From positions 3,812 through 67,811 of the forward strand of contig CBDCMQ010000007.1 in NCBI GenBank assembly GCA_965219205.1: a stretch of DNA of 64,000 nt. Direction: 5' to 3'. Both the position numbers and the translations under genes were made by a program. Position 1 is the first letter of the stretch, and every line of letters begins with the position of its first letter. Shown one piece after another: positions 471 to 60,790 of the stretch. The notes under the pieces were generated by a model that was not told where the DNA came from, did not search any database, and worked only from the letters and a program-made list of their open reading frames with translations. This DNA comes from Dehalococcoidia bacterium (GTDB lineage Bacteria; Chloroflexota; Dehalococcoidia; DSTF01; WHTK01).

Positions 471-530
471 TCGTAATATAATGCCTTGAATCTTGCCGCA
501 AGCTCCGAGATTTAGATTTAAAAGGAGAGC
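471..530 (+). promoter_or_regulatory. Leader of Rieske paralog 1: TATAATGCC -10-like box plus TTTAG-box (gatttagatttaaaaggagag) abutting the RBS
   Basis: Motif seen by eye; same architecture upstream of paralogs 2,3,4,5,10. Confidence 0.35.
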
Positions 531-1970: not shown

Positions 1971-2102
1971 TACTATAATGGTGCCAACGCCGCGCGGTCG
2001 GCTGGTTTTGAATCTCAAGAACAGCCCGCACCAAGCGGTTATAAACCTCTTTAGTAGAGTTTTTAGAAGTCAGCCCGTTTAGTAAACGTCTTTCAAAGTG
2101 AG
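1971..2102 (+). promoter_or_regulatory. Leader of paralog 2: tactataatggtgcc then two TTTAG-boxes (ctttagtagagtttttagaag; gtttagtaaacgtctttcaaagtgagg)
   Basis: Direct sequence inspection. Confidence 0.4.
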
Positions 2103-2111
2103 GTTACTCCC

Positions 2112-3440
2112 ATGACTATCGCCTACCGCAGCGAAGAGATGCTCCGCATGGTGGACCCCGAGACCGCGACGGTCGACCGGCGAATATTCGCCGACCGGGA
2201 CATCTACGAGATGGAACTGAAGCGGATCTTCGCCCGCGCCTGGAACTTCATGTGTCACGACTCCCAGATCCCCAACCCCGGCGACTTCTTCCAGACGATC
2301 ATCGGTGAAGACCGCGTCATCTGCGTCCGCGACAACGATGGAAACCCCCAGGTGCTGGTCAACACCTGCCGCCACCGCGGCAACGCCATCTGCCGTGCCG
2401 AGGAAGGCCACGCCACCTCCTTCATGTGCACTTACCACGGCTGGACCTACGACCTCAAGGGCGCCCTGGTCGGCGTACCGGGCTTCAACGAGGTCTACCA
2501 CGAGGAGCTGGACCGCGAAAACTGGGGCTTAATCAAGGCTGGCCGAGTCGACACCTATAAGGGCTTCGTCTTTGCCACCATGGACCGGGAGGCCGTCGAG
2601 CTCCAGGAGTTCCTCGGCGATGTCGGCACCATTGGCCTTAGCCTGATCGCCGAACGCGCCGACCAGATGCGGATCATCCCCGGTGTCCAGAAGTACACGA
2701 TCCCTTGCAACTGGAAGCTTGCCGTCGACAACCTGTTCGATTGGTATCACCCCGGCATCAGCCATTATTCCGCCTTCGCCTTGAGGATGTTCGGCGAACC
2801 CAAGCCCGGCGGCGCTCTCGCCGATCCATTGAAGCAGCCTCAGCTAGTCAGCCTCGGCGACTACGGCCACGCCATGAGCGGACCGCTTTCCTACATCGAC
2901 GAAATCGGCGAGACCTGGTCAATGGACGAAAAGTGGCGCGACCGGCCGGCCGCGAAGGAAGCCATACCGCCAGGAATGGCTATGACCCAGGCCCATCCCA
3001 ACATCTTCCCCAATCTTTGGGTGTCTCAAAACGGTTCTCAGCTCTGCCTCCGCGTGCCCAAAGGCACATCAAAAACCGAAATCTGGTGGTTCAGCTTCGT
3101 CAACAACGACGAGCCGCCGGAGACCTTTCCCATGAAGCGCGCGATGGCCATAAACGTCTTCGGCCCCGCCGGGTTTCTTGAGATGGACGACGGCGAAAAC
3201 TGGGGCGAGAGCACTAAGGGAGCCAAGGGAGTCATCAGCAGCCGCGCTCCGCTCAACTACGCCATGAACCGCAACCACGGTGAGGTAATCGACGACGAGT
3301 CCGGACCTCTGCGCATTGAGACAAACGTCAACGAGCACGCCCAGTTTTGGACTTACCGCGCGTGGGCCGACTGGATGGCCGCCGAGAGCTGGGCAGAGCT
3401 CAAGGCTAACCACACACCATCGCCCGAAGGACGCGTCTAG
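2112..3440 (+). CDS. Rieske oxygenase alpha subunit, alpha-only type (paralog 2)
   Basis: Same motifs as paralog 1; 442 aa. Confidence 0.85.
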   Translation: MTIAYRSEEMLRMVDPETATVDRRIFADRDIYEMELKRIFARAWNFMCHDSQIPNPGDFFQTIIGEDRVICVRDNDGNPQVLVNTCRHRGNAICRAEEGHATSFMCTYHGWTYDLKGALVGVPGFNEVYHEELDRENWGLIKAGRVDTYKGFVFATMDREAVELQEFLGDVGTIGLSLIAERADQMRIIPGVQKYTIPCNWKLAVDNLFDWYHPGISHYSAFALRMFGEPKPGGALADPLKQPQLVSLGDYGHAMSGPLSYIDEIGETWSMDEKWRDRPAAKEAIPPGMAMTQAHPNIFPNLWVSQNGSQLCLRVPKGTSKTEIWWFSFVNNDEPPETFPMKRAMAINVFGPAGFLEMDDGENWGESTKGAKGVISSRAPLNYAMNRNHGEVIDDESGPLRIETNVNEHAQFWTYRAWADWMAAESWAELKANHTPSPEGRV

Positions 3441-3516: not shown

Positions 3517-4650
3517 TGATCTCGTTCAGAAAGATGCCGTACACGACAATGATGAGAAGGCGGGGACGATACGGAGTCCCAATGCAGACGTACGGGTCGA
3601 TCATCCCAGGCGGTCCAACCCTGGCTCGTCTCCTCCCAGAGGGAGCGCAGGAAGGCAGGGAGGAGCCACGACTATCACGTGAGGCGAAGGCGCGCCTCAG
3701 GGCTGTTGAGTGGCACAAGGATCACGGCGAGAAGGTGAGTCTGACGGCAAGACGCTTTGGACGCAGCCGCTCAACCCTTTACCAGTGGCTAGAGTGCTAC
3801 CGGCTCCAGGGTCCGCGGGGTCTGCAAGACCGCAGCCATAGGCCACACCAGGTCCGCAAGCCGACTTGGAGCCTAGAGTTCGAAGCAGCGGTGCTACGCC
3901 TGCGCCAAGACAATCCCGTCTGGGGCAAAGACAAGCTACAGCCGATCCTCAGACGCCAAGGGGTCACTATCTCGGTCTCGATGGTGGGCCGCATCCTCAG
4001 CCGGCTCAGACGCCAAGGCAAACTGGGGCCTGCGAGTCTGAAGGACCCTTGCATCGTCTCTCGGCCTCAGGTGCGGCCCTATGCCGTGCGTAAGCCCAAA
4101 GACTACGTCGTCAAGGCGCCGGGAGATCTGGTTCAGGTGGACAGCGCCGACGTGCGCTGGACCGGTATTACCCATGCCTACAAGCACTTCTCGGCGCGTG
4201 ATATTGTCAGCCGCTGGGACGTCTTGGGTGTCTACGGCCGCGCTACCGCCGGCACGGCGCGCGACTTCCTCGATACGGTCATCGAGCGTATGCCGGGTCC
4301 GGTGAAGGCGATCCAGGTGGACGGTGGCTCTGAGTTCAGGGCCGAGTTTGAGGCCGCCTGTGAGCAGAAGGGGCTGCGGCTTTTTGTGCTGCCACCACGC
4401 TCCCCCAAGCTCAACGGCTGCCTGGAACGAGCCCAGCGCACCCACAAAGAGGAGCTTTACCAGTTGGTTGACCCACCCGACTCGCTCAGCCAACTGAGAA
4501 CCCAGCTGCTCCAACAGGAGCAGCGTTACAACACTTACCGGCCCCATCAGGCCCTTGGCCATCTAACGCCGCAAGAGTGGCTGCTAGCATTCACCGAGAG
4601 GAGGTAAGTGTCCGGCATCTACTGGACGAGTACACTCGCTTTCGTCATTG
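3500..4650 (+). mobile_element. IS481-family insertion sequence (boundaries approximate; terminal inverted repeats not resolved)
   Basis: Single transposase ORF with N-terminal HTH and rve-type integrase core inserted between a Rieske gene and an MFS gene. Confidence 0.45.
3534..4607 (+). CDS. IS481-family transposase (HTH + DDE integrase core domain)
   Basis: HTH region ..RSRSTLYQWL..; integrase core ..PRSPKLNGCLERAQRTHKEE.. typical of IS481/rve transposases. Confidence 0.8.
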   Translation: MPYTTMMRRRGRYGVPMQTYGSIIPGGPTLARLLPEGAQEGREEPRLSREAKARLRAVEWHKDHGEKVSLTARRFGRSRSTLYQWLECYRLQGPRGLQDRSHRPHQVRKPTWSLEFEAAVLRLRQDNPVWGKDKLQPILRRQGVTISVSMVGRILSRLRRQGKLGPASLKDPCIVSRPQVRPYAVRKPKDYVVKAPGDLVQVDSADVRWTGITHAYKHFSARDIVSRWDVLGVYGRATAGTARDFLDTVIERMPGPVKAIQVDGGSEFRAEFEAACEQKGLRLFVLPPRSPKLNGCLERAQRTHKEELYQLVDPPDSLSQLRTQLLQQEQRYNTYRPHQALGHLTPQEWLLAFTERR

Positions 4651-4761
4651 AAACAAGTCGCTTCATAATATGATGCTGCCAGCAGACGGAGGAGTTGATT
4701 GGCTAGCGGCGCGCCGGACCCAATCTCCGGTTCACAACTCTCAGCGTCGATAACCAGCCAA

Positions 4762-4800
4762 TGCCTTTAAGCCCGTTTTAGAAAACATTCAGGGTAGAAG
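4762..4800 (+). promoter_or_regulatory. TTTAG-box-like element upstream of MFS transporter (gcctttaagcccgttttagaaaacattcagggtagaag)
   Basis: Resembles agcccgtttagtaaacg / ctttagtagagtttttagaag upstream of Rieske paralog 2. Confidence 0.3.
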
Positions 4801-6129: not shown

Positions 6130-6198
6130 ATCCCCCCGGCCGGGTCTTGGCCTACCAAGAACCAGCACAAAAGCCACTAGATGAAAAACTTGCTAAAG

Positions 6199-6377
6199 CA
6201 ACGTATAATGCCGCCAAGTAAGAGCGCTAGTGTCATAAAATCCCGGCAACCTCGTTTAGTAAGATCTTCACAAGCAATCTGGACACGTGTTCCAAGGCAC
6301 CGCTTTCACAAGCCTGCAGCCCAAATCCTCAGCCAACGCCTGCAACCCCATTTAGTAAGAATCTCTAAAAGTAGGAG
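6199..6377 (+). promoter_or_regulatory. Leader of paralog 3: cgtataatgcc then TTTAG-boxes at 6253-6274 and 6349-6377 (catttagtaagaatctctaaaagtaggag)
   Basis: Direct sequence inspection. Confidence 0.4.
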
Positions 6378-6383
6378 CCCAGA

Positions 6384-7712
6384 ATGACTATCGCCTATCG
6401 CAATGCGGATATGTTGGGCATGGTCAACACTGAGACCGGTACGGTCAACCGCCGGATCTTCTCTGACCAGGACATTTATGAGCTGGAGCTGGAGCGGATC
6501 TTCGCCCGAGCCTGGAACTTTATGTGTCACGACTCTCAGATTCCCAACCCCGGTGACTTCTTCCAGACCGTCATTGGTGAGGACCGCGTCATCTGTGTTC
6601 GTGACAACGATGGCATGCCTCAGGTTCTGGTCAATACCTGCCGCCACCGCGGAAACGCCATCTGCCGCGCTGACGAGGGCCATGCCACCTCCTTCATGTG
6701 CACCTATCACGGCTGGACCTACGACTTGAAGGGTGCCCTGGTTGGCGTACCCGGCTTCAAAGAGGTCTACCACGAGGAGCTGGACCGCGAAAACTGGGGC
6801 CTGATTAAGGCGGGCCAAGTCGATACTTATAAAGGTTTCATTTTTGCCAACATGGACCCTGAGGCTCCCTCCTTCCCCGAGTACCTCGGCGATGTCGGTC
6901 GGATGTCGATCGACCTTGTCGCCGAGAAGGGCGAGGAAGTCATCGCGGCCGCCGGGGTTCAGAAATACACGATTCCCTGCAATTGGAAATTCGCCGTCGA
7001 CAACGTCTGGGATTTCTATCACGGCCTTACCCACCAGTCGTCGCTCATGTCCGGTTGGCAGCGGAACGACCGGCGCCGCCCCGGTGATTTGACTACCAAC
7101 TTCAATCGCCCCAACATGGCTCTTCTCGGAGAATACGGTCATGTCATTGGCGGACCGGAAAACAGCCCGGACAACCCACAAAGTGCCATGCGATCCCAGG
7201 AATGGCGTGAGCGGCCCCAGGCCAAGCAGGCCTTGGGGCCGCTTGTCGACCGGATTCCCGCTGGACACCCGCAGATCTTCCCCAACTTCTGGGTGACCGG
7301 CCCGGGACTGGGCCAGGTCAGCATGCGCATGCCCAAAGGGCCGATGAAGACCGAGATCTGGTGGTTCACCTTCCTGGACAAGACCACTCCCGATAAGCAT
7401 CCAGGGCATCTCCAGCAGGCGATGCGCACCTTCGGCCCGGCCGGAATGCTGGAGCAGGATGACGGCGAGAATTGGGGACAGAGCACTCGCGGCATGGTCG
7501 GGACGGCTAGCCAGAAGCATGCCTTGAACTACTCCATGGACATCGGCCGCGGCGAGATCATCGACGACGAACTCAGCCCGCCGCGAATCGAGACATCGAG
7601 TGTTAGCGAGCACCCACAGCTCTGGCATTATCGTGCCTGGTCTGAGTGGATGTCAGCCGAGAGCTGGTCCGACCTCAAGGCCAATCACTCGGAGCCCAAG
7701 GGCCGCGTGTAG
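6384..7712 (+). CDS. Rieske oxygenase alpha subunit, alpha-only type (paralog 3)
   Basis: Same motifs; closely related to paralog 4. Confidence 0.85.
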   Translation: MTIAYRNADMLGMVNTETGTVNRRIFSDQDIYELELERIFARAWNFMCHDSQIPNPGDFFQTVIGEDRVICVRDNDGMPQVLVNTCRHRGNAICRADEGHATSFMCTYHGWTYDLKGALVGVPGFKEVYHEELDRENWGLIKAGQVDTYKGFIFANMDPEAPSFPEYLGDVGRMSIDLVAEKGEEVIAAAGVQKYTIPCNWKFAVDNVWDFYHGLTHQSSLMSGWQRNDRRRPGDLTTNFNRPNMALLGEYGHVIGGPENSPDNPQSAMRSQEWRERPQAKQALGPLVDRIPAGHPQIFPNFWVTGPGLGQVSMRMPKGPMKTEIWWFTFLDKTTPDKHPGHLQQAMRTFGPAGMLEQDDGENWGQSTRGMVGTASQKHALNYSMDIGRGEIIDDELSPPRIETSSVSEHPQLWHYRAWSEWMSAESWSDLKANHSEPKGRV

Positions 7713-7812
7713 CGGCAAGCGAAGGCGACGCGTGTAGCGGCAAGCGAAGGCGACGCGTGTAGCGGCAAGCGAAGGCCGCGTGTAGCGGCAAGCGAAGCCA
7801 AACCGTCTAGCG
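7708..7812 (+). repeat. Tandem direct repeat, about 25-bp unit GTGTAGCGGCAAGCGAAGGCGACGC x 4-5, seeded by the last codons and stop of Rieske paralog 3
   Basis: Visible contiguous repeats; a 2-copy version follows paralog 4 at 9478-9540. Confidence 0.7.
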
Positions 7813-7860
7813 GCAAGCAAGGCCCCAGCCCTTAGTTTCCAAGCCGATTGACAGGCAAAG

Positions 7861-7908: not shown

Positions 7909-8140
7909 TTTGAAAACCTCTCAGAGCGCCGTATAATGCCGTCAAGCAGCGAAGATCGCAGGTGCAACCTTCGCAACGCGCTTACATCTTTCGAAGGCAA
8001 AATCCACCCAACCTCTACTACCGCCTTTAGTAACAATCTTTCCGGCACGCTGCACCTTTTCCTAAACCCCACGTTTAGAATCCCAACGACCCAAAGCTCA
8101 CCAAACCCCTGTAACCCCCTTTAGTGAAAATCTTTAGAAG
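7909..8140 (+). promoter_or_regulatory. Promoter (TTGAAA-17-TATAAT at 7909-7937) and leader of paralog 4 with three TTTAG-boxes (8021-8040, 8071-8087, 8117-8140)
   Basis: Direct sequence inspection; near-identical to region 9611-9705. Confidence 0.45.
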
Positions 8141-8158
8141 CCAAAAGGAGGCCGGAAA

Positions 8159-9487
8159 ATGACAATCGCTTACCACAACGAAGAGATGCTGGCAATGGTG
8201 GACACAGAAAAGGGCATCGTCGACCGTCGGATCTTCTCCGACCAGGACATCTATGAACTGGAGCTGGAGCGGATCTTCGCCCGCGCCTGGAACTTTATCT
8301 GCCACGATTCCCAGATCCCCGAGCCCGGTGACTTCTTCCAGACCGTCATTGGCGAGGACCGCGTCATCTGTGTTCGTGACAACGATGGCATGCCTCAGGT
8401 CCTGGTCAATACCTGCCGCCACCGCGGCAACGCCATCTGCCGCGCGGACGAGGGCCACGCCACCAGCTTCATGTGTACCTACCACGGCTGGACTTACGAC
8501 CTCAAGGGCGCCTTGGTCGGCGTGCCGGGCTTCAAAGAGGTCTACCACGAGGCGCTCGACCGTGAAAATTGGGGCCTGATCAGGGCAGCCCAGGTGGATA
8601 CCTACAAGGGCTTTGTCTTCGCCAATATGGACCCGGAAGCCCCTTCCTTCCCGGAGTATCTTGGTGACGTCGGGCGCATGTGCATCGACATGGTCGCTGA
8701 AAAAGGCGAAGAGATCGTTGTAGCCGCCGGTGTCCAGAAATACACCATTCCCTGCAACTGGAAGTTTGCCGCGGACAACGTCTGGGACTTCTATCATGGC
8801 TTAACCCACCAGTCCTCGGTGATGTCAGGCTGGCAGCGCAATGATCGGCGCCGCCCCGGCGACTTGATAACCAACATCGCGCAGCCCAACATGGCTTTCC
8901 TTGGCGAATACGGTCACGTCCATGGTGGACCTGAGAACAGTCCGAATAACCCGCTAAACTCCATCCGCCCCCAGGAATGGCGTGAGCGCCCCCAGGCCAA
9001 ACAGGCCTTGGGGCCGCTGATTGACCGGATCCCGGCAAGCCACCCTCAGATCTTCCCCAACTTCTGGGTTACCGGCCCCGGCCTGGCCCAGGTAAGCATG
9101 CGCATGCCCAAGGGGCCGATGAAGACCGAGATCTGGTGGTTCACCTTCCTGGACAAAACCACTCCAGAAAAGCATCCGGGGCATTTGCAACAGGCGATGC
9201 GTACCTTCGGTCCAGCCGGTATGCTGGAGCAAGACGACGGCGAGAACTGGGGCCAAAGTACCCGTGGCATGGTTGGCACGGCCAGTCAGCGGCACCCTCT
9301 GAACTACTCCATGAATATCGGACGCGGCGAGATTATCGACGACGAAATCAGCCCGCCTCGCATCGAAACTCCAACTGTAAGTGAGCACCCCCAGCTCTGG
9401 CACTACCGGGCTTGGTCCGAGTGGATGTCAGCCGAGAGTTGGTCCGACCTCAAGGCCAATCACTCGGAGCCCAAAGGCCGCGTGTAG
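8159..9487 (+). CDS. Rieske oxygenase alpha subunit, alpha-only type (paralog 4)
   Basis: Same motifs; 442 aa. Confidence 0.85.
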   Translation: MTIAYHNEEMLAMVDTEKGIVDRRIFSDQDIYELELERIFARAWNFICHDSQIPEPGDFFQTVIGEDRVICVRDNDGMPQVLVNTCRHRGNAICRADEGHATSFMCTYHGWTYDLKGALVGVPGFKEVYHEALDRENWGLIRAAQVDTYKGFVFANMDPEAPSFPEYLGDVGRMCIDMVAEKGEEIVVAAGVQKYTIPCNWKFAADNVWDFYHGLTHQSSVMSGWQRNDRRRPGDLITNIAQPNMAFLGEYGHVHGGPENSPNNPLNSIRPQEWRERPQAKQALGPLIDRIPASHPQIFPNFWVTGPGLAQVSMRMPKGPMKTEIWWFTFLDKTTPEKHPGHLQQAMRTFGPAGMLEQDDGENWGQSTRGMVGTASQRHPLNYSMNIGRGEIIDDEISPPRIETPTVSEHPQLWHYRAWSEWMSAESWSDLKANHSEPKGRV

Positions 9488-9560
9488 CGGCAAGCGAAGC
9501 CGGACCGTATAGCCGCAAGCAAGGCCGCAGCACTTAGTTTCCAGGCCGATTGACAGCCAA

Positions 9561-9610: not shown

Positions 9611-9705
9611 TTGAAAACTTCTCAGAGCGCCGTATAATGCCGCCAAGCTGCGAAGATTGCAGGTGCAACCTTAGCAACGCGTTTACAATCTTTCAAAGTA
9701 GGAGG
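9611..9705 (+). promoter_or_regulatory. Promoter (TTGAAA-16-TATAAT) and leader of paralog 5 with TTGCAggTGCAA dyad and TTTAG-box (cgtttacaatctttcaaagtaggagg)
   Basis: Direct sequence inspection. Confidence 0.45.
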
Positions 9706-13097: not shown

Positions 13098-13532
13098 TCA
13101 GGTCTCGATAGTATCAGACGAATCGACCGAGTCCGCATCGGGCTCCACGGTGTCCGCGGGTACCAAAAACTGCGTGTTCATTCGCATGCTGCTCTGAATA
13201 GCCTCTGTGTCTGGCAAAAGGGTTGAGCCAGAACCCTCGTCTCCTGTCAACCTGCCGTGCTCGTCAAGGTAGATGCCCTGAGTGGCAGCGTCTTGAAGGT
13301 TGTCGAGTTCGTGATCGCCCTGTGGCATCAAACCGTCGCTGGCTGGCGCGGTCTGTGCCTGGGAAATGGTTTCGTCGTCAGCGACGACATTATGCTCGCC
13401 CCAGGGGGCGGTTTTGCTGAACTCGTCAGCCTTCGGCAGGGCATCGCCCGTGCCGGAGGCGCTCGATTCCGTGGCGTCCACCTCTCCGGAGGTCTGACGG
13501 CTAAATGGTTTTTTCCAGTTCGGCGGCATCAA
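13098..13532 (-). CDS. Highly acidic low-complexity protein, paralog of upstream gene (unknown family)
   Basis: Starts MMPPNWKK, ends ..LTGDEGSGSTLLPDTEA..; ATGA overlap with upstream gene. Confidence 0.55.
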   Translation of the reverse strand: MMPPNWKKPFSRQTSGEVDATESSASGTGDALPKADEFSKTAPWGEHNVVADDETISQAQTAPASDGLMPQGDHELDNLQDAATQGIYLDEHGRLTGDEGSGSTLLPDTEAIQSSMRMNTQFLVPADTVEPDADSVDSSDTIET

Positions 13533-13999
13533 ACCGGCTCGCTGTCGGTCTCGTCGTAGATGACCACGGATTCGTCGTCACCACCGAGATCGTCCCCACC
13601 TGCTGGCATCTTGAGGAAGGACTCATGACCTCCGAGCGACTTGGTTTCCGGCAGCAAGGTCGAGCCGGCGTCGTCCCCGGTCAACTCGGGGTCCATACTC
13701 CGCGGCCCACCGGGGTCTTTGACCTCATCGGTGAACTCGGCGTCCATGCGCTGCGGCCCACCGGGGTCTTTGACCTCATCGGTGAACTCGGCGTCCATGC
13801 GCTGCGGCCCGCCGGGGTCTTTGACCTCATCGGTGAACTCGGCGTCCATCTTATTAATTGTGACGTTGCCATCGCCATCGGCCGCGTCGTCTACCGCCTG
13901 ACGGGTATCGGCCTGCATTTTGCCTTGCAGGCTATCGGGCTTGGCCGCATCATCGACACTCTCGTTTTTCTTGAAAATATTCCTGATCTTTGGCATCAT
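13529..13999 (-). CDS. Highly acidic protein with three perfect 17-aa repeats (MDAEFTDEVKDPGGPQR), unknown family
   Basis: Starts MMPKIRNIFKK with ATGA overlap onto stop of 13996-15588 gene; C-terminal ..LTGDDAGSTLLPETKS.. shared with next gene. Confidence 0.55.
   Translation of the reverse strand: MMPKIRNIFKKNESVDDAAKPDSLQGKMQADTRQAVDDAADGDGNVTINKMDAEFTDEVKDPGGPQRMDAEFTDEVKDPGGPQRMDAEFTDEVKDPGGPRSMDPELTGDDAGSTLLPETKSLGGHESFLKMPAGGDDLGGDDESVVIYDETDSEPV
13681..13850. repeat. Perfect 51-bp tandem repeat (about 3.3 copies) inside coding sequence
   Basis: gcggcccaccggggtctttgacctcatcggtgaactcggcgtccatgcgct repeated head-to-tail. Confidence 0.75.
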
Positions 14000-15588
14000 C
14001 GCACCGCCTTTTTGGAGATGGCTCCACTGTAACAGGCGTGTAAAGATTGTTGGGCGCGAACCTCGCGGATCGCCACCAGACCGCAAATCGTGGTTGGCAG
14101 AGGGTTCGGCCCTAAGGTCGCGACCAACTCCAGGGTCGATGGGTTGATCAAGATGATGGCACTGCTGGCCCGGTCGGCGATGATGATACCGCGGCCGACC
14201 CGCGCGATGCCACAGGGTTCGGCAGACTCCAGGCCCGCCACCTTGCCGAGGCTGTTGGTCGTCATGTCATCGACGACCAGCAATAACAGTTCGGTCTCGG
14301 CGACGATCAGGACGCGCTTGATCACCGGGTCGTAGCCGGCGGCGTCAATCCTACGGTCGAGATCGCCGACCTGCCGCAATGCACCCTCCTCCTCGATCAG
14401 CAGGATGGCTCCATCGGACTCGAAAATCAGCAGTCCAAGGCTCGCCACGACTGCCAGTCCAACCGCATCGACGCGTCGCTCCAACAAGCCAAGCGGCGTA
14501 CGATGGCCCGTCGCAACGTCCACATTGATAAGCAGCGAGACATCAGAGTTGGAGACGACGGCCAAAACGACCTGGCGGCGCACCACGACACCGGAGGGGA
14601 GCGGGACTCCGCGCGGCACGACGGCTAAAGGCGAGAAGACATCAGCCGTGCCTTCGCCGCTCACGTGAGATAGCGAGCCGTCTTCCGGCTGTAGCCGGAA
14701 GATTGTGCCGTCAGCACCACCGAACCCAACCAGATCAAAGCCTGGGTCCTCCGGGAAGACCAGTGGAGCCAGACTGGCGCTACCAAAAGCCACAGCGGCC
14801 GCACCAGTAAACGCCGTCTTCATGACTAGGCTGGAGCCCGCGTAGATACGCGATGAGTCGTAGAAGGCACGGCGCCCGATCTGCACCGGAGAGCCACGCC
14901 ATCCAGCCTGCCCCAAGACCCGCACAAACTGAACGTAGACGGCGAGCCCCGCGAAGGCCGCGCCGAGCAGCAGCCCCGTCTCGAAGCCATTCTGAATGGC
15001 GCTAGAAACCAGCACCGCGATCAATGAAACAACGGCCAGTCCGCCGCCGCCAACCGCGATTTGGCTGACTAGGCGCGCGGATTTCGCCGAAAGGCCGGCA
15101 AAACGCCGGCGGTCTGGCGCTGAAGCGAAACCGAAACGAAGCTCGCTGACCTGGTGTAACGGGATCGGTGGTGGCCTTGCCGATTGGTTTGGGCCCGGCG
15201 ACCCGCTGCGGTCGAAGCGCCGCCCGAGCGGGGTGAGCGACACTAAACTGCGTAGCTGAGTGAGTGCGGCTACTCCCAGGAAGATGCCGAAGACGACCGT
15301 GACCAGATCCGCCACCGCGAAGGAGCCATCGTCAGCAAGCTCGATGATCTGACCTATGATGCCGACAAGCGCGAATAGTGTTACTGCCAGGAACAGCAAG
15401 CGCAAACCGTGGCGGCGAAAGAAGCTGCGCGAGCCAAGCATGCGCGTTTGGTCAAAATCGAGATCAACCGACGAAGTCGGCCATCCCGATCGGTGCCCGA
15501 GGGCCTGTGCGACGCCGGCTGATCGCGCCCGGCAAAGCCGTTCGGCGATCAGACTGTTGCGCGACCGATCAGGCATCTTCCCTGTCAA
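13996..15588 (-). CDS. Membrane-anchored protein with C-terminal YVTN-type beta-propeller-like repeats (hypothetical)
   Basis: N-terminal TM helices, then four repeats of the type ..SNSDVSLLINVDVATG.. / ..ESDGAILLIEEEG.. / ..AIILINPSTLELVATLG. Confidence 0.5.
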   Translation of the reverse strand: MTGKMPDRSRNSLIAERLCRARSAGVAQALGHRSGWPTSSVDLDFDQTRMLGSRSFFRRHGLRLLFLAVTLFALVGIIGQIIELADDGSFAVADLVTVVFGIFLGVAALTQLRSLVSLTPLGRRFDRSGSPGPNQSARPPPIPLHQVSELRFGFASAPDRRRFAGLSAKSARLVSQIAVGGGGLAVVSLIAVLVSSAIQNGFETGLLLGAAFAGLAVYVQFVRVLGQAGWRGSPVQIGRRAFYDSSRIYAGSSLVMKTAFTGAAAVAFGSASLAPLVFPEDPGFDLVGFGGADGTIFRLQPEDGSLSHVSGEGTADVFSPLAVVPRGVPLPSGVVVRRQVVLAVVSNSDVSLLINVDVATGHRTPLGLLERRVDAVGLAVVASLGLLIFESDGAILLIEEEGALRQVGDLDRRIDAAGYDPVIKRVLIVAETELLLLVVDDMTTNSLGKVAGLESAEPCGIARVGRGIIIADRASSAIILINPSTLELVATLGPNPLPTTICGLVAIREVRAQQSLHACYSGAISKKAVR

Positions 15589-31389: not shown

Positions 31390-31403
31390 TGGGACAATTG
31401 TCC
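31390..31403. promoter_or_regulatory. Perfect palindrome GGGACAATTGTCCC in divergent intergenic region (AsnB-like <-> Rieske 6), candidate operator
   Basis: Direct sequence inspection. Confidence 0.3.
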
Positions 31404-31582
31404 CGGACTAGACTAAGAGTTTATGACACTCACCGCGTCAGACCAGGATATTCGCCCGCAACCCAAGCCATGATGAAAAACCGCAAAACATCATTGACAC
31501 CCCAGCTATCATTCTCCTAGGTCATTTCCGATGACACCTGCTGGGCGGCACCTGATATGACGGTGATTGGAGAGAGCGTTTC

Positions 31583-37527: not shown

Positions 37528-38856
37528 ATGACCATCGCCGACCGCCACACTGAAATGCGCGGACTCGTGGACCCGGAAACTGCTTTGGTCGACCGCCGGA
37601 TCTTCTCTGACCAGGAGATCTATGAAATGGAATTGGAACAGATCTTCGCGCGCGCCTGGAACTTCATGTGCCACGACTCCCAGATCCCCAATCCGGGCGA
37701 TTTCTTCATGACAGTCATCGGTGAAGACCGGGTCATCGTCGTCCGCGATGACGATGGCATGGCCCAGGTTCTGGTCAATACCTGCCGCCACCGCGGCAAC
37801 GCGATCTGCCGGGCGGACGAGGGCCACGCCACATCATTTATGTGCACCTACCACGGCTGGACCTACGACTTGAAAGGTGCGCTGGTTGGAGTGCCTGGCT
37901 TCAAAGAGGTGTATCACGAGGAACTCGACCGCGAGAACTGGGGACTGATCAAGGCTAACACGATCTCCTACAACGGCTTTGTCTTCGCCTGCTTAGACCC
38001 AGAAGCACCAGAGCTTTACGACTACCTCGGTGAAGTCGGGCGCCTAAGCCTCGACTACCTTGCCGTCCGCGGGGAAATCCAAGTCGTTGGCGGCGTGCAG
38101 AAGTACACCATTCCCTGAAACTGGAAGCTCGCGGCCGATAACGTCTGGGACTACTACCACACAACTACCAGCCATGCGTCATCGATCGCCGCGCGTCCCA
38201 CCGGCAACCGCAGCGGTATGAGCATAATCCAGGACCCCAAACGCTTCACCCAACCTCACATAGTCATTCTTGGCGAATACGGCCACGCGATCAGTGGGTA
38301 CCACGTCACGCCGGACTCGGATTCCCTGGGCGCGATCAACGCTCGCAATGACGCCTGGCGCGAGACTCCGGAAGCCAAACGGGTTCTCGGGCCTGTGGGA
38401 GGCAGCCACGCCGGCCACCCTCACGTCTTTCCCAATATGTGGATGACGGGCAACCAAATCAGCATGCGCTTTCCCAAGGGCCCCACTACGACCGAAATCT
38501 GGTGGTTCACCCTTCTGCAGAAAGAGCTTTCTCCGGAAGACAGGAAAACCAAGGTTCAGGGAGCCAACCGCGCCTTCGGACCTGCCGGAATGCTGGAACA
38601 GGAAGACGGCGAAAACTGGGGCGAAAGCACCAAGGGATCTGGCGGAACTATCAGTTGCCGGTGGCCGCTCAATTATTCGATGAACCTCGGTCTGGGCACG
38701 GTAATCGATGACGAGACCGGCCCGCCCCATATCGAGACCCGGATTAACGAGCACGCCCAACTCTGGCTGTACCGCGCTTGGGCCGACTGGATGAGTGCAG
38801 ACAGTTGGTCCCAGCTCAAGGCCGACCACACTCCCGTCCCCCGGGACACGGTCTAA
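37528..38856 (+). pseudogene. Rieske oxygenase alpha subunit paralog 7 with single in-frame TGA (38116-38118) at the conserved Cys of TIPCNWK; otherwise intact
   Basis: MTIADRHTEM..CRHRGNAICRADEGH..TIP*NWKLAADNVWDYYH.. same frame continues to 38856. Confidence 0.7.
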
Positions 38857-45653: not shown

Positions 45654-46259
45654 ATGAAACGCAACTACGACGGAACTCGCCGGGCTGATGCCGCTAAACG
45701 TACCCGCGACCAGATTGTCGCCGCCGCCTTTCGGCTCCACGGTGGCGGCATCATCGATATGGACGCCCTGGCCGACGAAGCAGACGTGTCCGGCGCCACC
45801 GTCAGAAAACATTTCCCCACACGCGAGACCGTCTTCGAGAACTGCACGGCCTATGGTTTCCACCTCGTTCCAGCGCCAGACCTGGAACTAATTCGCCAAA
45901 TCGAAGACCCTGCTGGCCGAACGCGGCAGGCAGTCCACGAAGCATATTCCTTTCACGAGGCTCTTCTCGGCCAAACCTGGAGCTCATTCAAGTACGAGCA
46001 CGAGTCACCTGCCCTGGCAAACGCGCTGGTTCAGATGGAAAACTTAACCTCACTGATCGCCGGGGCCGTTCTCGAAGTTTGGCCCAGCGCCGATCACACC
46101 AGTCGTGGCCTGCTTCTCGCTATGCTCGGCCCACTGAGCTACCGTGCTCTGCGGGTGGACGGCGGTCTAACATTGGCCAAGGCAATCGACCAAACTACCG
46201 CCATGCTGGTCGGCGTTTTGACCAGCGGCGCTTCCCGAGAGGAGGCTGCTTATCGTTAA
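45654..46259 (+). CDS. TetR/AcrR-family transcriptional regulator
   Basis: N-terminal HTH ..TRDQIVAAAFRLHG..; 201 aa. Confidence 0.75.
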   Translation: MKRNYDGTRRADAAKRTRDQIVAAAFRLHGGGIIDMDALADEADVSGATVRKHFPTRETVFENCTAYGFHLVPAPDLELIRQIEDPAGRTRQAVHEAYSFHEALLGQTWSSFKYEHESPALANALVQMENLTSLIAGAVLEVWPSADHTSRGLLLAMLGPLSYRALRVDGGLTLAKAIDQTTAMLVGVLTSGASREEAAYR

Positions 46260-52433: not shown

Positions 52434-52460
52434 GATTCTTTAATGCGGTCTTTAGGAAGC
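52434..52460 (+). promoter_or_regulatory. TTTAG-box-like element (gattctttaatgcggtctttaggaagc) in AT-rich region upstream of ABC exporter operon
   Basis: Resembles ctttagtgaaaatctttagaag upstream of Rieske paralog 4; local AT-richness atypical of coding sequence. Confidence 0.3.
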
Positions 52461-56086: not shown

Positions 56087-56242
56087 CCTGATCACCTGCT
56101 AAAAGGGGGCATCCAGCTTGAGCGAGAACCTAGTAATTGCCTTGACAACCTTGTTATTATTAGTCAACCAAAAAGCTCTTTAATGGGACAGTTCTGCCTG
56201 TTCAAATATCTGAAAAAATACGGTCTGTTGGAGGAGTAACTC

Positions 56243-58928: not shown

Positions 58929-59279
58929 ATGACCAAAACCCGGCGTGTTTACTCGTCCGATGGCGATACCATCGACTTCCGCAAAGTCCAAAAGCCCAAG
59001 GCCAAAAAACCGGCGTCAGGCGCGCCGCCTGTGCCAGAGGACGGCGTGGTGCGGATCTTCCGCGAAACTGGCAAACGCGGCGGGAAGACCGTTACGGTGA
59101 TCCGCGGTCTGCCGGAACGCGGCCCCGCCCTCGAAGCGCACGCGCAGGAGCTCAAACGCCTCTGCGGCGCCGGCGGCACGCTAAAGGACAACACGATCGA
59201 AATCCCGGGCGACCATCGCGATCGGGTTGCCCAGCGTTTGCGAGACCTCGGGCATACCGTCAAGCTAGCCGGTGGTTAA
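58929..59279 (+). CDS. SUI1/YciH-family translation initiation factor-like protein
   Basis: ..GKRGGKTVTVIRGL..LKRLCGAGGTLKDNTIEIPGDHRDRV.. Confidence 0.8.
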   Translation: MTKTRRVYSSDGDTIDFRKVQKPKAKKPASGAPPVPEDGVVRIFRETGKRGGKTVTVIRGLPERGPALEAHAQELKRLCGAGGTLKDNTIEIPGDHRDRVAQRLRDLGHTVKLAGG

Positions 59280-59350
59280 CTTTAAAAGCCCAAAAAAACC
59301 CTTTCGCGAAAGATCTATCAAAACTACCTCACAACGTCTGCTGCTTCGCG

Positions 59351-59423
59351 TTTACAATGCCCAGGTACCAGCATTCGCCGGACCCCGGTAACCCCCTTTA
59401 GTCAGAATCCTTCAAAGTAGGAG
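59351..59423 (+). promoter_or_regulatory. Leader of paralog 10: tttacaatgccc -10-like box and TTTAG-box (ccctttagtcagaatccttcaaagtaggag)
   Basis: Direct sequence inspection. Confidence 0.4.
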
Positions 59424-59430
59424 CCCTGCC

Positions 59431-60790
59431 ATGACAATCGCCTCTAGAAGCGAAGAAATGCTGCGGACCGTGAACCTCGAGACCGGTACCGTTGACCGGC
59501 GAATTTTCTTCGAACAAGACATCTACGACTTGGAGATGGAGCGTATCTTCGCCCGCGCCTGGAATTTCATGGCTCATGATTCGCAAATCCCCAACCCCGG
59601 TGACTTCTTCATGACTTTCATTGGCGAGGACCGCGTAATCTGCGTGCGCGATAACGAAGGAAAGCCCCAGGTGCTGGTCAACAGCTGCCGTCACCGCGGC
59701 AACGCCATCTGCCGGGCCGACGAGGGCCACGCAACTAGCTTCATGTGTACCTACCACGGCTGGACTTACGATCTAAAAGGCGCTCTTGTCGGCGTGCCGG
59801 GCTTCAAGGAGGTCTATCACGAAGAACTCGACCGGGGAGAGCTGGGGCCTAATCAGGGCCACGCAGGTCGACACCTACAAGGGATTCATTTTCGCCAATT
59901 TGGACCCTGAAGCCTCTGGCCTTGAAGGATACCTCGGCGAAGTCGGCAACATGTGCCTTGACCAGTTGGCCGAACGCGGTGATATCCGTATCGTCGCCGG
60001 CATTCAGAAATACACTATTCCTTGCAACTGGAAGTTTGCTGCCGACAATGTTTGGGATTTCTACCACCCAAGCATCACTCACGTATCCTCTTTTATGGCC
60101 GGCAACTGGCGCAAAGCGGCGCCAGGCGCCGAGCCGCAGGCCCCGGCCCGTCAGGGCCATACGATCAACAGCCTCGAGCGAGCGCATGTCGTCGTCCTCG
60201 GTGAGTACGGTCACGCACTCTCTGGTCCCAAGCTCGACGAGCAGGGATTGGAAATGCGCCGCAATTTCGGCGGCGACAATCGCTGGCGCGAGCGCCCCGA
60301 AGTCAAGGCGACTCTCGGACCGGTCGGGCTCAAAGTCAGCGAACATCCCCAAATCTTCCCCAACCTCTGGCTCGCGACCGGCGGCGGCCAACTCAGCCTC
60401 AGGCTGCCCAAGGGTCCCGGCAAAACTGAGATTTGGTGGTTTACATTGATCGACAAGGATACAGAGGCGGAGATGCACGAAGTTCAGAGGCATCGCGCCA
60501 CTCATGTTTTCGGCCCGGCAGGCATGCTGGAGCAAGAGGATGGTGAGAATTGGGGCGAAAGCACTCGCGCCAATGCCGGCGTCGTTAGCCGTCGATTCCC
60601 GTTGCACTATGCAGCGGGCCACGGCCACGATGAGGTCATCGAAGACGAAGGCGGCCCACCCTATGCCGAAACGATGGTCAACGAGCACGCCCAACTCTGG
60701 CACTATCGCGCCTGGTCGGAATGGATGGCCGCCGATAGCTGGCAGGACCTGAAAGCCACTCACTCGCAGGTGCCGCGCGACCGACTTTAG
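59431..60790 (+). pseudogene. Rieske oxygenase alpha subunit paralog 10 with +1 frameshift in a G-run near 59835-59840 (possible sequencing error)
   Basis: ..ELDRGELGPNQ.. instead of ..ELDRENWGLIRATQVDTYKGF; correct continuation found in 59786-60790 frame. Confidence 0.55.

Follow-up and report, generated by a model that had tools for sequence, protein, structure and literature searches.

The window, a 64,000-nt stretch of a Dehalococcoidia bacterium contig with a GC content of ~59%, contains ten alpha-subunit paralogs of the Rieske/Ring_hydroxyl_A type (Table 1). Other genes in the window encode MFS and ABC transporters, an IS481-family transposase and various hydrolases. The nearest protein relatives are found in Dehalococcoidia MAGs, while a look-up of the paralog 3 protein itself returned no record. 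Among the genomes in the collections, OZ252017.1 ('Dehalococcoidia bacterium', 3.06 Mb) is the nearest, its syntenic stretches having a nucleotide identity of 82-96%. Expansion of ring-hydroxylating dioxygenase paralogs is a described trait of SAR202-type Dehalococcoidia (PMC6946804), and these oxygenase expansions are thought to target recalcitrant organic matter (PMC6946804, PMC5395668). When the paralogs of the window are compared (e.g. 6384-7712 with 2112-3440), the N-terminal ~150 codons, corresponding to the Rieske domain, are ~77-97% identical at the amino acid level and identity drops to 28-39% in distant pairs within alignment columns 225-300, a pattern in which the electron-transfer domain stays constant and the catalytic region attached to it is hypervariable. 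Paralogs 7 and 10 are probably pseudogenes, or the frameshift in paralog 10 is an assembly error; the promoter-leader unit of paralog 10 is still perfect despite the frameshifted gene. The gene immediately 5' of paralog 10 (58929-59279) has a C-terminus that by eye looks SUI1/YciH-like, making it a candidate translation factor, and its arrangement with paralog 10 is also kept in the related locus L009.

The initial annotation had described a -10-like element and a TTTAG-type box running into the ribosome-binding site upstream of paralogs 1, 2, 3, 4, 5 and 10, and had proposed that these leaders define a candidate regulon of oxygenases and transporters. With copies anchored on TTTAGT, the TATAATGCC box and the TTTAG box turn out to be opposite ends of one ~72-nt unit. 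The order within the unit is CGTTTACAAT or TATAATGCC, a 27/28-nt spacer, TGTAAC-CCCC-TTTAGT-RANAAT-CTTTMRAAG, and then 1-6 nt leading to the Shine-Dalgarno sequence (SD). The 5' end is formed by a -10 hexamer, TATAAT or TACAAT, followed by GCC, the spacer is C/A-rich and G-poor with a weak CTCAYC core, and the box includes the segments TTTAGT and CTTTAGAAG. Eleven diverged units align nearly gap-free with a mean column identity of 64% and the spacer held at 27/28 nt; the columns without variation belong to TTAGT or are individual C, T and A positions in the box. The box contains two half-sites, CTTTAG(T) and CTTTAG(A), which are 13 nt apart. Because the 3' end of the unit stops so close to the SD, the box spans about -34 to -14 from the start codon. 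The last box of a leader lies at a fixed 12-18 nt from the ATG and at anything from ~40 to ~180 nt from the functional promoter.

The -10-like element is present upstream of all six of these paralogs, as TATAAT at paralogs 1-5 and as TACAATGCC at paralog 10. TATAAT occurs only seven times in 64 kb; the five + strand copies each lie upstream of one of paralogs 1-5, and G(C/G)(C/T) comes next in all five. A sigma-70-type promoter, taken as a -35-like hexamer, a 16-18-nt spacer and TATAAT, was found at paralogs 3-5, with 11 of 12 consensus positions matched at paralogs 4 and 5 (TTGAAA-16-TATAAT) and 10 of 12 at paralog 3 (ATGAAA-17-TATAAT). Paralogs 1, 2 and 10 have a good -10 only. Terminator-like hairpins are located 5' of the near-consensus promoters of paralogs 3-5, and a duplicated 14-bp hairpin of this kind precedes the promoters of paralogs 4 and 5, from which we take these two genes to be monocistronic. 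Where a leader contains further units downstream, these have kept the box, and their hexamer has decayed.

Table 1. Window coordinates of the Rieske paralogs and of the promoter, unit, box and SD elements in the leaders
Feature	Position	Strand	Remarks
Rieske paralog starts	538, 2112, 6384, 8159, 9712, 31583, 39140, 56243
Rieske paralog 7	37528-38118		fragment, Rieske domain only
Rieske paralog 10	59431-60790		frameshift near 59900 splits the gene
Paralog 1 leader	477..527	+	TATAATGCC; very weak box-like TTTAGATTTAAAAGGAG
Paralog 2 leader	1974..2103	+	TATAAT at 1974-1979; SD GTGAGG
Paralog 2 extra box	2050-2069	+	more degenerate
Paralog 2 SD-proximal box	2078-2098	+
MFS decayed unit	4731..4800	+	TTCACAAC ... 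TTTAAGCCCGTTTTAGAAAACATTCAGGGTAGAAG; aligns to the two-box L002 MFS leader
Paralog 3 sigma-70-type promoter	6181..6209	+	ATGAAA, 17 nt, TATAAT, GCC discriminator (the TATAATGCC box)
Paralog 3 distal decayed box	6255..6274	+	TTTAGTAAGATCTTCACAAG; weak profile match, 8.8 bits
Paralog 3 SD-proximal unit	6304..6371	+	decayed hexamer TTTCACAAG, 28-nt spacer, TGCAAC-CCCA
Paralog 3 SD-proximal box	6351-6371	+	TTTAGTAAGAATCTCTAAAAG; profile 21.3 bits
Paralog 3 SD and start	6373..6386	+	AGGAG at 6373-6377, ATG at 6384; 442 aa, Rieske + Ring_hydroxyl_A
Paralog 4 leader	7910..8151	+	promoter TTGAAA-16-TATAAT at 7910-7937
Paralog 4 unit 1	7980-7987, 8026-8046	+	GCTTACAT; box, more degenerate
Paralog 4 unit 2	8073-8081, 8110-8115, 8120-8140	+	GTTTAGAAT; TGTAAC; box
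Paralog 4 SD	8145-8151	+	AAGGAGG
Paralog 5 leader	9611..9705	+	promoter TTGAAA-16-TATAAT at 9611-9638; SD AGGAGG
Paralog 5 fused short unit	9681-9698	+	GTTTACAATCTTTCAAAG
Paralog 10 complete single unit	59350..59423	+	GTTTACAAT, 28 nt, GGTAAC-CCCC
Paralog 10 box and SD	59397-59417	+	profile match; AGGAG follows the box

Gene by gene, the leader architecture was borne out at paralogs 2, 3, 4 and 10 and, in truncated form, at paralog 5; it is weak at paralog 1 and indirect at the MFS gene. The paralog 3 box directly precedes the AGGAG, as described, and two boxes were recovered within 2049-2102 at paralog 2, as were the equivalents of those placed at 8117 (paralog 4) and 59393 (paralog 10). The orthologous unit of paralog 10 is kept in L009. 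A box is also present at paralog 5, where it had been placed at 9680, but only as a short unit, which looks like the product of a deletion between AATC microhomologies that would have fused GTTTACAAT to CTTTCAAAG. The supposed middle copy of paralog 4 at 8073-8081 is not a box; it is the decayed GTTTACAAT -10-like hexamer of a unit. The short box assigned to paralog 1 (509-530) is doubtful, the element at 511-527 being too weak to score and giving no profile match. The CDS of the paralog 1 orthologue is ~95% identical and its leader is wholly different; as the box has thus been lost or replaced in both species despite the similarity of the CDS, any constraint upon it is not absolute.

Three further genes had been brought into the proposed regulon. 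In the MFS leader (4762-4800) the window copy (4766-4800) is decayed and gives no significant profile match, yet the orthologue in the related loci L002, L042 and L048 has two clear boxes behind a GTTCACAAT hexamer, so that the claim is partly borne out. The IS481-family transposase gene (3534-4607) lies between paralog 2 and the MFS gene and is absent from the syntenic L002, L042 and L048; in the window, the MFS leader beside this insertion has lost one 34-nt box repeat and the remainder is decayed. Upstream of the ABC exporter (52434-52460) we found a lone CTTTAGGAAG without profile match, and upstream of paralog 9 (56176-56230) nothing box-like, this gene having its own conserved TTGACA-type promoter region. 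Paralog 6 was correctly described as lacking the box and having a palindrome instead, the perfect 14-bp GGGACAATTGTCCC at 31391-31404. Unrelated to the box, this palindrome is also kept at the orthologous L011 locus and looks like a candidate classical dyad operator.

The box is far from randomly distributed. The pattern TTTAGT-NAN-AATCYYT-NN-AAG (TTTAGTNANAATCYYTNNAAG), searched with up to three mismatches, gave five matches in the 64-kb window against 0.08 expected, a number that none of the shuffles reached; all five are on the + strand and within Rieske leaders. With up to two mismatches the 14-nt core TTTAGTNANAATCT gave six matches in the window against 1.2 expected. An nhmmer profile of the box, run over ~400 kb comprising the window and loci from several related genomes, returned ~40 matches, every one of which is on the sense strand and in an intergenic 5' leader, and scanning the window with the profile revealed no antisense copy that might represent an sRNA. 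Exact-pattern scans covered ~186,000 species genomes as well as JGI metagenomes, and OZ252017.1 alone yielded the motif (four copies); the remaining matches were set aside as chance because the AACCCC context is absent and nearly all fall on low-GC contigs. A wider family of boxes for covariation analysis was not obtained from these genome and metagenome scans, and our literature searches found no description of the element. The promoter-leader element is young and restricted to this lineage, within which about eight Rieske orthologue groups carry the box and at least 14 others are without it. Among the other genes sampled, it is present only at the MFS gene.

Such a distribution might arise if the box had simply been inherited with the flank of each duplicated gene. 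However, the box-bearing genes belong to two Rieske clades with a protein identity of only ~62%, and in the tree the box-less paralogs 6 and 9 are equally distant. Identity at four-fold sites among the paralogs is ~0.4-0.65 against a composition baseline of 0.40, which is near saturation even for the closest pair. With synonymous sites in this state neutral leader sequence should be scrambled, and outside the box it is, the remaining parts of the leaders being impossible to align between paralogs. Plain vertical inheritance with the gene flank is therefore insufficient alone. Some exchange between 5' ends is also apparent. Over the first 150 codons, four-fold-site identity is 0.62-0.66 among box-bearers as opposed to 0.17-0.45 in pairs of a box-bearing and a box-lacking gene, and the L002 gene at 7007 has a 55-nt leader tract identical to that of window paralog 4, though it is positioned as paralog 5. 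Both the higher synonymous identity and the tract shared by non-orthologous genes indicate that 5'-end recombination contributes too.

Copy number of the unit varies between strains. In related genomes one Rieske gene is preceded by a 97-nt tandem array of the unit with 95% identity between copies, and this array contains 3, 3, 4, 4 or 5 boxes in five assemblies whose neighbouring protein is identical. Tandem duplication periods in the leaders are 28, 33-36 and 90-97 nt, and the duplicated segments are whole 28-97-nt stretches with their spacers included. A 28-nt extra box is present at paralog 2 but not at the 96%-identical orthologue (L002), and paralog 4 has one whole unit more than its 91%-identical orthologue. 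Orthologous leaders can be aligned only at the promoter and at the last box and SD, and differ by insertions and deletions of whole units. Between leaders, identity is 80% among the SD-proximal copies but only 68% when distal copies are compared with SD-proximal ones (Mann-Whitney p = 0.003). The extra upstream boxes can accordingly be seen from their sequences to be decaying by-products of recent tandem duplication.

These observations bear on the suggestion in the initial annotation that multiple copies per leader form an operator array. In such an array one would look for a fixed distance to the promoter and several sites under selection; the distance to the -10 runs from ~40 to ~180 nt, and the decay of the distal copies indicates that multiple occupancy is not selected. 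As the extra copies are recent duplicates, and box number differs between strains from three to five, multiple copies do not support such an array. In its broader form the idea treats the boxes as operators on DNA, bound by a transcription factor that might, for instance, be a direct-repeat roadblock downstream of RNA polymerase; they would then define a transcriptional regulon. The half-sites are indeed direct repeats, the 27/28-nt spacing from hexamer to TGTAAC would put the box at ~+21 to +51, at the downstream edge of the RNA polymerase footprint, and an orphan unit with neither SD nor gene (described below) keeps a perfect box. The constant 28 nt from the -10-like hexamer also fits a DNA site just downstream of the bound polymerase. 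However, the real promoters of paralogs 3 and 4 are 140-180 nt upstream and the hexamer beside the conserved box is decayed. Conservation follows proximity to the SD and not to the promoter. All ~40 copies have a single orientation, box spacings of 28, 33-36, 46 and 90-97 nt have no helical phasing, and a G-poor, unstructured sense strand is a property of RNA. Nor is a transcription factor gene linked to the boxes, the TetR gene at 45654 being 36 kb from the main cluster. We therefore regard DNA operators as distinctly improbable. What stands of the regulon is a shared, non-random leader that includes the non-homologous MFS gene; the ABC exporter, paralog 9 and the array do not belong to it, and none of the loci examined has a regulator gene linked to the cluster.

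The orphan unit is found in L011 (2608-2715), between an amidase and a GNAT gene and antisense to both, and consists of a TACTAT hexamer, 28 nt, TGCAAC-CCCC and the perfect box. It is absent from the corresponding junction in the window (~28060), where the amidase and GNAT genes overlap. Possibly it could drive a putative antisense transcript into the amidase gene. Examination of the orphan boundaries and of the unit ends for MITE or IS features revealed neither terminal inverted repeats nor target-site duplications.

That such a copy exists, and that copy number varies with strain, could mean that the module is functionless, either an intergenic repeat that is selfish or prone to slippage, or a gene flank that hitch-hiked and was homogenised by 5' gene conversion. 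Other tandem duplications occur in the same region (the 25-nt repeat at 7704-7823), and the 55-nt tract common to the L002 gene 7007 and window paralog 4 and the higher four-fold identity among box-bearers are compatible with 5' gene conversion. Moreover, paralog 1 and close homologues at other loci (L001, L033) no longer have the box. We nevertheless find this improbable, because conservation has sharp edges, with box and promoter kept and the leader scrambled even where the orthologous CDS is ~91% identical, because the SD-proximal copy is consistently the best preserved, and because the orphan insertion lacks the marks of a transposable element. Modular intergenic repeats with variable subunits are known, among them the pneumococcal BOX elements and the Neisseria Correia elements. 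Like these, the unit is lineage-restricted, built of subunits, strain-variable in copy number and gene-adjacent, and can supply promoter or processing signals. Unlike them, it has no inverted-repeat termini or predicted hairpin, is strictly oriented, and has spread narrowly, mostly within one gene family.

In several paralogs the 5' UTRs are long, ~65-215 nt, and the initial annotation had also allowed for a structured RNA element. A consensus fold of ten leaders by RNAalifold contained 0 pairs, single leaders folded no better than shuffles (z-scores -0.2 to +1.5), and Rfam covariance models gave nothing at gathering score across the 64 kb, with relaxed thresholds (E up to 5) yielding noise. 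Leader length and content also differ completely between orthologues. A structured cis-regulatory RNA such as a riboswitch or attenuator is thereby effectively refuted. Instead, the leaders are predicted to be open. Box-bearing leaders have an ensemble energy of -18.8 kcal/mol against -30.7 for the other genes of the window (p = 3e-5) and an unpaired probability of 0.53 against 0.45 in the translation-initiation region (TIR; p = 0.015), where the control genes include operon-internal ones. The longer box-bearing leaders have a G content of mostly 0.13-0.23 against 0.28 in the window, and box-bearing leaders are C-rich, with a C/G ratio of ~2-3.

Several other explanations were tried against the sequences, and most were set aside. 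An upstream ORF running from the ATG within TATAATG to the TAG of the box would start inside the -10 and have no SD before its ATG, and hand translation gave peptides unrelated between paralogs, with the box read in differing frames. As an ECF-sigma promoter, with TGTAAC as -35 and TCAAA/TTTAGA as -10, the unit would lack a -35-like element at paralog 2; the paralog 5 deletion would make its spacing differ by 5 nt, and the spacer would have to accommodate the conserved TTTAGT. Neither the IHF consensus nor integron attC core sites fit the box. Less easily dismissed is a weak internal -10 (RANAAT) in the box, which might give a short-leader transcript; it has no -35 or TG extension and failed the promoter scan.

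Taken as a whole, the module looks like a duplicating expression cassette, and its existence does not prove that a dedicated regulator controls a regulon. More specifically, we give an even chance to the reading that the box is a single-stranded translation-initiation element of a lineage-specific ~72-nt sigma-70-type promoter-leader module, which would serve high expression. The -10 hexamer, with a TTGAAA-type -35 in paralogs 3-5, would make each gene its own sigma-70-type transcription unit; both the transcription start sites and the translational role of the box we infer. On the mRNA the box would be a single-stranded, sequence-specific part of the TIR, acting as an A/U-rich enhancer or standby platform kept open by the unstructured leader, and may set the efficiency of 30S subunit loading on oxygenase mRNAs. 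To judge from its anatomy, the module would have spread among Rieske paralogs by gene duplication and 5'-end recombination, and may additionally have reached the MFS gene by capture and the orphan site by a single copying event. A role on the mRNA at the TIR is favoured by the sense-only occurrence, the fixed distance to the ATG, the conservation of SD-proximal copies and the G-poor unstructured leaders.

The region from about -34 to -14 is the part of an mRNA contacted by the 30S platform and protein S1. A/U-rich translational enhancers or standby sites upstream of the SD are known from the 'epsilon' leader of phage T7 gene 10 and from S1-dependent enhancers. The box resembles them in being A/U-rich and predicted to be single-stranded, and in lying at ~-35 to -14, directly 5' of a good SD, in a GC-rich genome. 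It differs in that base composition suffices for such enhancers, whereas the box has invariant bases and two half-sites. Two points run counter to the enhancer reading: the MFS boxes have no recognisable SD adjacent to them and the distal MFS copy is the better one, and the orphan unit has no gene downstream. Furthermore, the invariant TTAGT...C..T..AAG exceeds what a generic A/U-rich S1 enhancer needs and hints at a specific partner. The strict bases, the paired CTTTAG half-sites and the 28-nt spacing to the hexamer would suit a specific partner that binds RNA or DNA.

If that partner acts on RNA, the box would be an mRNA operator for a dedicated trans-acting factor; an sRNA, an RNA-binding protein and a BoxA-like complex of NusB/NusE are the candidates. 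By masking or freeing the SD, such a factor would co-gate oxygenase translation, and it might shield the C-rich, G-poor leader from Rho. This is in keeping with the invariant bases, the two half-sites with their 13-nt separation, and the SD-adjacent, sense-only and single-stranded context; the C/G ratio of ~2-3 resembles that of Rho-loading regions, and both half-sites resemble BoxA cores (TCTTTA). We consider it unlikely all the same, given that 0 boxes lie within one mismatch of GYTCTTTAANA, that a linked candidate regulator gene is missing in every locus and an antisense copy in the window, and that distal copies decay. In other bacteria BoxA located within 50 nt of start codons regulates mRNAs (Baniulyte et al. 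2017, PMC5725501), and phyla differ in their BoxA consensus (Stringer et al. 2020, PMC7665894). Similarly, the box is a short linear motif with a TCTTTA-type core in an untranslated leader, less than 50 nt from the start codon and in a Rho-prone context. However, its half-sites match only 8 of the 11 positions of GYTCTTTAANA, a gamma-proteobacterial consensus that may not be that of this lineage, and genuine BoxA is usually single where the half-sites here are paired. An rRNA operon, whose leader BoxA would offer the direct comparison, is present neither in the window nor in the related loci. In its fullest form the idea would have a dedicated post-transcriptional regulator, either a diverged Nus-factor/BoxA system or an RNA-binding protein specific to the lineage, dock on the box and gate translation and Rho protection for the Rieske set and the transporter, with copy number as a heritable expression dial; this we hold to be a shade less likely again.

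The element as a whole fits known kinds, namely propagated promoter-leader modules (PMC3488235), SD-adjacent enhancers and modular intergenic repeats. Putative mobile promoters (PMP) were defined by Matus-Garcia, Nijveen and van Passel (2012) as sequences of at least 50 nt and at least 80% identity upstream of non-homologous CDSs (PMC3488235). In like manner, a 50-100-nt promoter-bearing module here recurs before several genes, including the non-homologous MFS gene, and at an orphan site, and its conservation extends up to the start codon as in the Treponema example (-120 to -5) (PMC3488235). Measured against the PMP threshold, the MFS and Rieske leaders share 78 nt at 74% or 35 nt at 91%, which is just under it; the orphan and the L002 gene at 7007 share 52 nt at 85%, the orphan having no downstream CDS. 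The module differs from PMPs in that most copies precede paralogous CDSs, which the PMP pipeline excludes (PMC3488235), and in that it also amplifies in tandem within one leader.

For the oxygenases this means that a subset of the Rieske paralogs are monocistronic units under one shared promoter-leader cassette. A shared cassette, no linked regulator gene and a strain-variable copy number together suggest expression that is constitutive or globally tuned, and not substrate-specific induction. If a specific factor binds the box, it would offer a handle on co-ordinated oxygenase control in an uncultured lineage; if none does, the module would be a tidy case of promoter-leader propagation and tandem amplification, mainly of use in annotation.

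Tandem repeats also occur in the window outside the leaders. At 13678-13849 a 51-nt repeat (3.4 copies, 95% identity) lies inside the overlapping ORFs 13505-14032 (+) and 13529-14086 (-), the + strand ORF being without a Pfam match. The 25-nt repeat at 7704-7823 is present in 4.9 copies with 89% matches and duplicates the final 8 nt of paralog 3, including the stop codon (GCGTGTAG), plus 17 nt of the 3' flank. A similar two-copy version follows paralog 4 (9480-9530); like the leaders, the stretches behind paralogs 3 and 4 tend to duplicate in tandem.
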